Part shown: piece after piece, positions 1 to 3,000 of the stretch
Numbering within the stretch: position 1 is the stretch's first letter
Layout: every line of letters starts with the position of its first letter
Source: Escherichia coli
GTDB lineage: Bacteria; Pseudomonadota; Gammaproteobacteria; Enterobacterales; Enterobacteriaceae
Assembly: GCF_003334765.1 (NCBI RefSeq)
Contig: NZ_QOWT01000048.1
DNA: 21,358 nt
Direction: 5' to 3' (one strand)
Program-made: the position numbers

Positions 1-3000
1 GGCAATGGAACAAATTACCGCCCATTGTGAGTCATATTCGCCCTGACTTTCCAGAACCATACGAATCGCCCTATGACGGACTTCGGGGGAAAACGAGTAT
101 TTTTAGTCATCCTGTTTACCTCTTTCTCAGGGAGTTTAGTCTCCAGGATTCCCGGGCAGTTCATTTTCCGGATCGTATTTTATTAAAGCATCACGAATAT
201 TAACAATGTAAATCAGAGCGTTATCTGGCGACATCCAGGCATTGGGGGGTAGGTTTGCCCTCATGGGGCCCTTTGGTGAGCCCTACCGGTGTCACACCCG
301 AAGAGACAATCACCTCTGGAACCTCATTGAGATGCTGGCAAAAGCGCTGGAACCATAATTCCAGATTCATACCATTGGCGAGAATCAGTTATGCCCCCTG
401 CGCACGTTTAATATCACCAGAGGTGGGCTAAGACTCATGAATTTCTGCACCCGGCTTGGTTATGGATGAGACTTCTGCATCATCTTCAGCCACTTTTTTG
501 GCCATATCCGCGATGATGGTAAATGTTGTTATGGATATGATCTGCACAGTATTCAGCTTCCAGAATCTGTACACTTTTCCACTCACACAGCTTTCTCAAA
601 ATACTGCCTGTTGCTCTACGCTTCTCTCTGTAGAACACTTGTCTTCGGTATTTTGGCGCAAAAACTATGTGATATTTACAGTTCCATCGTGTGTGCGCTA
701 AGCTCTTTTCGTTCCCCATTGGGACCCCCTTTTGATTTCTTGTTTGACACTTGCAGTTGCCAGACCGCAAGGTGTTTTAACAAATCAAAAGGGGTTTTAA
801 TAACTGGCCTCAAAGCTGAAAGCTTTCCGGAACCCCCAGCCTAGCTGGGGGTTTTCTGTGCACAAACAGGCTCAGGACGGCGGGAATGATCCCGCCTCCT
901 GCTCGATCGCCCAAAACACGGCTTACCGAGGCTATTCCTTGTCCGAAGATAACAAGGACACATACATTATCCATTTGCGATTGCGCATACTCCACTGCTT
1001 CCCTGAGGATCTCAACTTCCATGGTTAATGAGATGGTCCCCACCACCCTGTGAGCTGTACCCTAGTAGAGTGTTTTTCTTTCATGGAGAAGACCATCATG
1101 CAAAACATTACGCTTATTGGTATAGATCTTGGCAAGCATTCCTTTCACATTCACTGCCAAGATAAGTCAGGCAAGGTATTGCTGCGTAAAAGTTTACCCG
1201 TACCAAACTTATTGAGTTTCTGGCAGGCTGTGCCTCGTCTACCGTTGTGATGGAAGCCTGCGCCGGAGCTCATTTTATGGCTCGCCGGATTGCTGATTTA
1301 GGTCATGAAGCAAAATTGATTTCTCCGCAGTTCGTTCGCCCTTTTGTTAAGAGCAACAAGAACGATTTTGTCGATGCAGAAGCCATATGCGAAGCGGCAT
1401 CTCGTCCCTCCATGCGATTTGTGCAACCACGAACAGAAGCTCAGCAGGCCATGCGGGCGCTTCACCGGGTCAGGGAATCATTGGTCAGTGATAAAGTCAA
1501 AACGACCAATCAGATGCATGCTTTTTTGCTGGAATTTGGCATCAGTATGCCGACAGGAGTCGCAGTGGTAAAACGACTTTCAACAGTACTTGCAGAGAAC
1601 GAACTTCCTCCCTATCTGGCGCAGTTACTGATGCGCTTACATGCCCATTATATTTACCTTGTCGGACAGATCACCGAGCTTGAAATCGCACTGGAGCAGG
1701 AACTGAGTCGTGATGAGGTAGGACAACGTCTTCAGACAATACCCGGTATTGGTCCGATAACCGCCAGCGTACTGTCATCGCAGCTGGGAGACGGTAAACA
1801 ATATAGCTGCAGTCGGGACTTTGCTGCTTCAACCGGTCTGGTACCCCGGCAGTACAGCACAGGTGGTAAAAATACCCTTTTAGGGATAAGTAAACGTGGA
1901 GATAAAAATCTGCGACGGTTACTCGTTCAGTGCGCAAGATCCTTTATTCAGAGAATCGAGAATCAGTCAGGAAGGTTGGCGGATTGGGTCAGGGCGTTGT
2001 TGGCAAGAAAACACTCCAGCGTAGTATGTTGCGCACTGGCCAACAAATTAGCCCGGATAGCGTGGGCAATCACAACACAGCAGACTGTGTTCGAAAGGTA
2101 ACGATGGCGCCAGTCTGGCTGGCAGGTTAATCATGAATTAAAGTAGTTCCCAATCTGGTTTTGCGAAGACTGATTATTGATGACATGAACGGCATATCGG
2201 CCTGATGAAAAGCCTCAGCAAGAAAATGGCTCACTGAAGCCGGATGGTTTTTTGGGCTCATCAGGTGTGGAACTCATCGAGGCGCGGGCATCCATGCCCA
2301 TAATGACGCCGGATAGATTTAGGCAAGCCAACATCAATCAAAATCAGTGTTGCAAAAATGGTGGGGACCATAGATTCTTGCCCAGTAAACGCTGAACCTG
2401 ATTAATCTGCTTTATCGCAGCGGCCAGTTCAGAAGCAGGAACAACGTCTTCACCAGCAGCAACAGCATTGAGAGTTCCTTCCAGGTATTGTTTCTTCCAC
2501 TTAAACAACTGGCAGGGCTGAATTCCATGTAAACGAGCCATCCGGGCCAGCATCATTCCTGGCTCATTAAAGGCCATTTCAGTTATCAGCTCTTTCATAC
2601 CCGGCTTACGTGCTTGATAAGTATAAGTGAGCTGAAACACACGGTGGCAGTCACGGTAGCGAAATCTGTCACGGCCTTTAGGGTTCTGACCATGGCGGTA
2701 AACCTGAGCTGACTGACAACGGGGACAATGAATATTAACGCTGGACATGAGATAACCTCAAAAGCCCGTATTATACATCAGATTCAACTAATTAGAGGCA
2801 TCACCAATATGTTTATAGCAATCTCAAATAATGATATAAAACATATTTTCATTGGCTTTTAAAATAAGTCAAGAATTGTTTTGGTGTTATGCCAAAATGT
2901 TTTACAAAAAGCCTAATGAAATATGATGTACTGGAAAATCCTATCATATTAGATATCTGTGATATCTGATATGAGTTATCAAGCAACAGCAATGCTGCTT

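Follow-up and report, generated by a model that had tools for sequence, protein, structure and literature searches.

Positions 832-912 of a 21,358-nucleotide (nt) stretch of Escherichia coli (E. coli) DNA (RefSeq assembly GCF_003334765.1, contig NZ_QOWT01000048.1) very probably constitute a junction at which three mobile elements, all of them dead, meet on an enteroaggregative E. coli plasmid of the pAA type. The whole stretch is hereafter referred to as the window, and all coordinates are those of the window. The junction can be described as composed of the left end of the insertion sequence (IS) IS200C, on the minus strand, of a plus-strand stretch that by its sequence represents the final 34 nt of a group II intron, and of part of an IS3-family element, on the minus strand. 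The original prediction had placed in this region a terminator-like hairpin with a T-run, which is present as described, followed by a block resembling an intron relic at 9481-9520, and it had offered two readings of the block: a second intron relic next to a hairpin, or an insertion-sequence junction shared by both loci. Here, the hairpin and the 34-base block are parts of two different mobile elements, whose identities, boundaries and orientations at 832-912 are observed.

Results

The segment 530-864 (minus strand) is a remnant of IS200C, identified by alignment to IS200C copies and from the annotation of the Prokaryotic Genome Annotation Pipeline (PGAP). It comprises the left end and the 5' part of the transposase gene tnpA, about 335 of 707 base pairs (bp), the right part being deleted. 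Positions 530-871 are 97.7% identical to a complete IS200C copy (L009), and the IS200C region matches 2874 E. coli records. Left ends of IS200C occur at about 9,800 places in 5,426 complete E. coli genomes. In the PGAP record of an identical plasmid, an incomplete IS200/IS605 tnpA that lacks its C-terminus is annotated at 531-719 on the minus strand. The arrangement of an IS200 left end is found here, namely the terminator hairpin at nts 12-34, a Shine-Dalgarno-sequestering stem-loop, and then tnpA. Homology to IS200 ends at 530, and the length of about 707 bp, the intact Y1 transposase and the right end of a complete element are missing. The remnant is unable to transpose.

The hairpin corresponds to the left-end inverted repeat of IS200, AACCCCCAGC TAG GCTGGGGGTT, at 831-853 on the minus strand, which is nts 12-34 or thereabouts of the element according to the Rfam family STnc490, the folds and the published description (PMC4513863). 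Read on the plus strand, its arms are CCCCCAGC (833-840) and GCTGGGGG (844-851), separated by the loop CTA and followed by TTTTCT. It folds with -20.7 kcal/mol as RNA and with -11.8 kcal/mol as DNA (z = -3.8), and none of 200 shuffles folds equally well. STnc490 matches 853-729 on the minus strand with 140.5 bits (E = 5e-29, model positions 1-124), and the first helix of the match is the hairpin. Nts 12-34 of IS200 are a bidirectional rho-independent terminator that shields tnpA from impinging outside transcription (Ellis et al. 2015, PMC4513863). By its likeness to the published Salmonella IS200, the hairpin at 831-853 can be assigned as the left-end terminator hairpin of IS200. It is internal to the element: there is a stable stem with TTTTCT, yet no plus-strand gene ends there. 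The hairpin does not belong to the intron and probably does not serve a neighbouring gene as its terminator; it is the left end of an IS200 remnant on the opposite strand.

A separate observation concerns the strand of STnc490. The model matches the tnpA-sense strand (729-853, minus) and takes in the terminator hairpin; STnc490/art200 is described as a 90-nt RNA antisense to the 5' untranslated region of tnpA (Ellis et al., PMC4513863). The Rfam model may not correspond to the characterized RNA in strand or in extent.

Positions 856-864 hold the outermost part of the IS200 left end, its tip, which reads (T)GTGCACAG on the minus strand. In all of eight independent IS200C copies, which have unrelated flanks, GTGCACAG(A/C)AAA stands directly before the hairpin. 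Because the 23-nt inverted repeat 853-831 equals the published nts 12-34, nt 1 of IS200 falls at about 863/864. On the plus strand, TTTTCT is followed by GTGCACAAACAGGCTC (858-873) and then by the block 874-907, so that the eye meets a hairpin, TTTTCT, GTGCAC and finally CTCGAT. This order mimics the insertion of a class C intron, since introns of this class enter directly behind terminator hairpins and have GTGCG as their first nucleotides (PMC1702495), and the whole could be taken as a miniature or internally deleted class C intron with the hairpin as its target stem-loop, GTGCAC as its 5' splice site and CTCGAT as its 3' end. That is extremely unlikely: the hairpin, the T-run and GTGCACAG are invariant in IS200C copies without a nearby intron, the supposed splice sites are about 50 nt apart and enclose no domains I-V, the branch-point A is a G and the basal helix of domain VI is absent. 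Since the tip is invariant across the eight copies, GTGCAC is the palindromic IS200 tip and not an intron 5' end, and the intron-like GTGC on the plus strand is a coincidence of this palindrome. The segment GTGCACAAACAGGCTC was also considered as the 3' strand of an intron domain V and was rejected, because GTGCACAG is the invariant IS200 tip and full-length introns differ there.

The block 874-907 (plus strand; AGGACGGCGGGAATGATCCCGCCTCCTGCTCGAT), which starts with AGGACGG and ends in CTCGAT, aligns to the 3'-terminal 34 nt of group II introns of the E.c.I6 family (open reading frame (ORF) class C), that is, to the upper helix of domain VI and the 3' tail. It matches the last 34 nt of the full-length introns of two loci, L008 and L006, at 32 of 34 positions (94%, E = 3e-9). 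A sensitive ('distant') search of complete E. coli genomes with 854-912 as the query found about 900 genomes that match 874-908 alone, at 94%, and every match outside the pAA context starts at 874. In CFT073 the match lies directly after fragmented genes for maturase/reverse transcriptase (RT), the intron being located between grpO and grpP, and in plasmid pDETEC37 (L008) it lies 43 nt after an intact ltrA. The loci with full-length introns have ribozyme matches to RF02001, RF01998 and RF00029. The LtrA of pDETEC37, which belongs to a relative of the stub only, has the domains RVT_1 and GIIM and no others, so it is an RT and maturase without an endonuclease domain. The full-length introns of L006 and L008 start with GTGCGCC right after a terminator made of a hairpin plus T residues, and insertion just after terminator hairpins is a hallmark of bacterial class C introns (PMC1702495; PMC3522654). 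The single, ORF-disrupted intron of CFT073 is catalogued as E.c.I6, ORF class C (Leclercq & Cordaux 2012, PMC3522654 and its supplement). Judged from these alignments, the block is a second intron relic, of the E.c.I6 family. One half of the proposal of a relic next to a hairpin is thus sustained by the 94% identity to the 3' ends of RT/maturase introns, and the other half falls, because the hairpin is that of an IS200 on the opposite strand. A match to the terminus of a known insertion sequence, the outcome named in advance as counting against a relic, did not appear; what the block matches is the 3' end of an intron.

In an intact intron of this family, domain VI reads GAG-AGGA-C-GGCGGGA-loop-UCCCGCC-UCCU-A-CUC-GAU, with the bulged A seven nt from the end. 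The stub has lost the 5' GAG, hence its basal domain VI helix has no 5' strand; the upper helix still folds (-19 kcal/mol). The branch-point A is replaced by a G at 901, and it is present both in the orthologue on the pAA plasmid of strain C700-09 (L002) and in L008. As the A is kept in the C700-09 plasmid, the change in the window is recent. The suggested fold with a bulged-A helix is therefore not obtained beyond the upper helix. In an Rfam scan of the window, there was no RF00029 match, and thus no domain V, at 854-907, the sole match being at 9444-9515. The stub is inert and can neither splice nor move.

The 3' boundary of the stub is exact. Segment 908-1026 (minus strand), identified by alignment of other IS copies, is the 3' exon of the stub and consists of the end of orfA and the start of orfB of an IS3-family, IS2-like element. 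We take this element to resemble IS2 in its OrfA. Other copies (L003, L004 and L005; on plasmids of E. albertii and E. coli and on one chromosome) align from exactly 908, and before this point the uninterrupted copies carry unrelated IS sequence (...GCGCACGCGACA|CGCCCAGAA...). Since the alignment starts at 908 and not before, 907|908 is a true intron-exon junction and marks the 3' splice site exactly. The plus strand carries the stub, the minus strand the IS2-like genes, and the joined minus-strand translation of the IS2-like element reads as a transposase-like ORF.

The block was said to resemble 9481-9519, and this similarity is real, with the start at 9482 and not at 9481. Positions 874-908 and 9482-9516 are identical, ungapped, at 31 of 35 positions (88.6%; blastn E = 5e-6 within the window); counted by eye over the 39 nt originally compared, 33 are identical. 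The best ungapped match of the 34-mer elsewhere in the window is 30/34. Both blocks are short and rich in G+C, so that chance likeness between two G+C-rich hairpins had to be weighed. It is hardly credible in view of the 31/35 and its E value, of the 200 window shuffles, which reach 22/34 at most against the 30/34 observed, and of the match of both blocks to the identical position, the last nucleotides, of full-length introns.

The second locus is an intron relic, as had been supposed, and it extends over 9425-9515 (plus strand). It comprises the last 91 nt of an E.c.I6-family intron, with the end of the region for the intron-encoded protein (IEP), domain V and domain VI, as indicated by RF00029 (9444-9515, 47.2 bits) and by the intron alignments: identity amounts to 92.3% with the 3'-terminal 91 nt of the L008 and L006 introns, and to 92-96% with introns of the E.c.I6 type from about 900 E. 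coli genomes. It adjoins a different IS3-family orfA (9516-9684, minus strand; MTKNTRFSPEV...). Both blocks thus adjoin minus-strand IS3-family transposase genes, and at both loci the minus-strand reading frame continues through the block, which would suit an insertion-sequence terminus or junction common to the two loci. Such a shared junction is nevertheless very improbable. The flanking IS3-family elements differ (IS2-like at one locus, the MTKNTRFSPEV... orfA at the other), and what the two loci share breaks off at the intron end, the likeness of the two blocks ending one base past CTCGAT in both. Moreover, uninterrupted IS2-like copies lack the block and have different sequence before 908, and full-length introns outside insertion sequences have the block as their 3' end (for example in CFT073, between grpO and grpP).

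The 82-residue ORF at 9436-9684 (minus strand) is a fusion, in which the N-terminus of the IS3-family orfA product (MTKNTRFSPEV...HERD) is followed by the reverse complement of domains VI and V of the relic, up to a stop codon. This ORF is an annotation trap.

Between the IS200 tip and the intron stub there are nine nt, aacaggctc (865-873), that match neither neighbour. They are unlike the intron at that position (gtggtgtgag in L008) and they are not shared by the flanks of the other IS200C copies; they are present in the sister plasmid L002. Local approximate matching in the loci compared gave no informative match for 865-873. An exact scan of genome contigs with AACAGGCTCAGGACGGCGGG gave three matches, in unrelated G+C-rich genomes, which we took as chance. 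In L002 (positions 2990-3030 of that locus), the IS200 remnant is shorter, with the 3' half of the hairpin only, from the equivalent of window position 837; the IS110-family element described below is absent, and L002 retains both the intron stub and the 9-nt orphan.

The left-end flanks of eight other IS200C copies (L009-L012 and L016-L019) were compared. All eight start, with GTGCACAG, precisely where the T-run of a strong hairpin ends, and this hairpin is the intrinsic terminator of an upstream gene; the terminators that host IS200C include those downstream of tyrA, carB, yfeX and pdxI. According to a preprint, terminators are enriched upstream of IS200/IS605 elements at the level of the family, and in the literature on the choice of IS200 targets we found nothing beyond this general statement. 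Furthermore, pDETEC37 (L008, 2963-3045) and pZH177-2 (L021, about 90-160) each have an E.c.I6-like class C intron of full length placed between a terminator (5' exon ...GCTTTATTGT) and IS200 (3' exon GCACAG...); the intron stands two nt within the IS200 tip. The position of the intron between a real terminator and IS200 in these two plasmids indicates that both elements use the same niche.

A third group II intron is found at 16144-18008. It is full length and of another family, about 68-77% identical to E.c.I6-like introns, and has an intact ORF for a 450-residue IEP at 16560-17912. Its first nucleotides, GTGTGCC, directly follow the hairpin aaagcccgtgggggcttttttt, and a truncated IS2-like orfA lies upstream of the intron. 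Its domains V/VI (17935-18008) are below the gathering score of RF00029.

The IS2-like element is itself interrupted at 1027-2374 (plus strand) by an IS110-family element of 1348 bp, recognized from PGAP and from the empty site in L002. It has a subterminal inverted repeat, ATGGTCCCCACCA, and a frameshifted transposase gene at 1098-2101, for which the PGAP label is 'IS110 family RNA-guided transposase, frameshifted'. The empty site on the pAA plasmid of C700-09 reads CCATGGTT|TTCTTGCCC, and the IS110-family element is inserted at the identical point (CCATGGTT|) of the IS2-like element in plasmids of E. albertii and E. coli and in one chromosome. As there are 71 nt before the ATG of the IS110-family gene, any guide RNA would fall in the right end of about 270 nt. 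The segment 854-1097 was considered as the non-coding left end of the IS110-family element, carrying a bridge RNA. This was ruled out, because the element starts at 1027, as the empty site and the alignments show, and the idea is also at odds with the IS3-family sequence at 908-1026.

Over positions 100-2300 the window shows 100% identity to enteroaggregative E. coli plasmids of the pAA type. For one such identical plasmid, the PGAP record places aggR about 750 bp downstream of the region; the genes around the region are for the most part broken transposases, and 854-1097 is without any feature. Every part of the junction is a fragment from a well-described family of elements, the plasmid type is well sequenced, and the parts are of already known kinds.

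Discussion

We infer an order of events as follows. An E.c.I6-family class C intron would have been reverse-spliced and reverse-transcribed into the bottom strand of the IS2-like element, at ...GCGACA|CGCCC.... The intron would have been reduced to its last 34 nt (874-907), still ending at the exact 3' splice junction with the insertion sequence at 908. IS200C would have arrived in the orientation opposite to that of the stub and facing it with the left end, and its tip GTGCACAG and hairpin would explain the succession of hairpin, T-run and GTGCAC. The right half of IS200 would have been lost afterwards by deletion.

A refinement of this explanation, rather than a competitor to it, is that IS200C was targeted to this site. 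Its transposase, or its mechanism based on single-stranded DNA, would favour the 3' side of a G+C-rich hairpin followed by T residues, the bottom strand of the stub would have served as a surrogate terminator, and the adjacency of the two elements would not be due to chance. We put this forward tentatively, as a possibility that falls well short of being the probable course. In its favour are the eight of eight independent IS200C copies that begin at the T-run end of an intrinsic terminator, the terminator enrichment reported in the preprint, and the stub itself, which forms a 12-bp G+C-rich hairpin on the minus strand (-14 kcal/mol as DNA, z = -3.4) followed by AGCCTGTTT, with the IS200 tip 8-9 nt on, and so resembles the terminator-like sites of those eight copies. 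The same intron family also shares one terminator with IS200 in L008 and L021. However, these two loci probably descend from one event, the window is a single case, and the 9-nt orphan suggests rearrangements beyond a simple insertion.

Several points weigh against the reconstruction and against the assignments on which it is built. The terminator role ascribed to the hairpin comes from published work on Salmonella IS200, and a simple, pattern-based terminator scan of 500-1200 called no terminator, the IS200 hairpin included. The scan likely missed the hairpin because the AA that precedes the stem takes up the first two T residues in pairing, so that the tail is short of T. With respect to targeting, the eight canonical IS200C sites have shorter spacers, richer in T, than AGCCTGTTT. 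Since 865-873 match neither element, a simple insertion of IS200 into an intact intron fails to explain the 5' break of the stub. Finally, the stub has lost its 5' exon, and no significant hairpin was found upstream of the insertion point in the uninterrupted IS2-like target (z = -0.19). The intron therefore probably integrated away from a canonical class C site, in what may have been an ectopic event.

The significance of the junction is mainly one of annotation: 854-1097 can now be labelled as an IS200 tip, an E.c.I6-type intron stub and an IS3-family fragment. The region also calls for caution, as an IS200 left end read on the opposite strand mimics a terminator followed by an intron 5' end. 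A mildly useful by-product is that IS200C stands exactly at the ends of intrinsic terminators in all eight copies examined, a niche shared by class C introns. It is conceivable, albeit doubtful, that IS200C and class C introns both home to the 3' side of a hairpin followed by T residues and so meet repeatedly, the stub serving as a surrogate terminator in the window and an E.c.I6-like intron entering between a terminator and the IS200 tip in pDETEC37 and pZH177-2. If this were general, terminators would be a contested safe harbour for two unrelated mobile elements that are based on single-stranded DNA or RNA, and the domain VI hairpins of introns would be able to seed IS200 insertions.

Compared with the known left end of IS200/IS200C (Ellis et al. 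2015, PMC4513863), the remnant in the window has the same tip, hairpin, second stem-loop and start of tnpA, with about 98% identity. It differs in that it stops after about 335 bp, with tnpA incomplete and the right end gone. The stub, when compared with E.c.I6 and its truncated copies (PMC3522654), has the identical 3' nucleotide end and is 94% identical over the last 34 nt, and the E. coli fragments are likewise found in degraded regions of large mobile elements. Unlike E.c.I6, it measures 34 nt, has neither a ribozyme core nor an ORF, and its branch-point A is mutated; moreover, it is located inside an IS3-family gene and not after a terminator, in a target without a significant hairpin. 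The relic 9425-9515 belongs to the same intron family as the stub and is also 3'-anchored and antisense in an IS3-family element. However, it is longer (91 nt), has kept domain V together with an intact domain VI, bulged A included, and is found in another IS element at another position. In pDETEC37 and pZH177-2, as in the window, the same two families of element stand directly side by side. The intron of these two plasmids is full length, has the orientation of IS200 and is located between a genuine terminator and IS200, whereas in the window the orientations are opposite and the intron is a stub.

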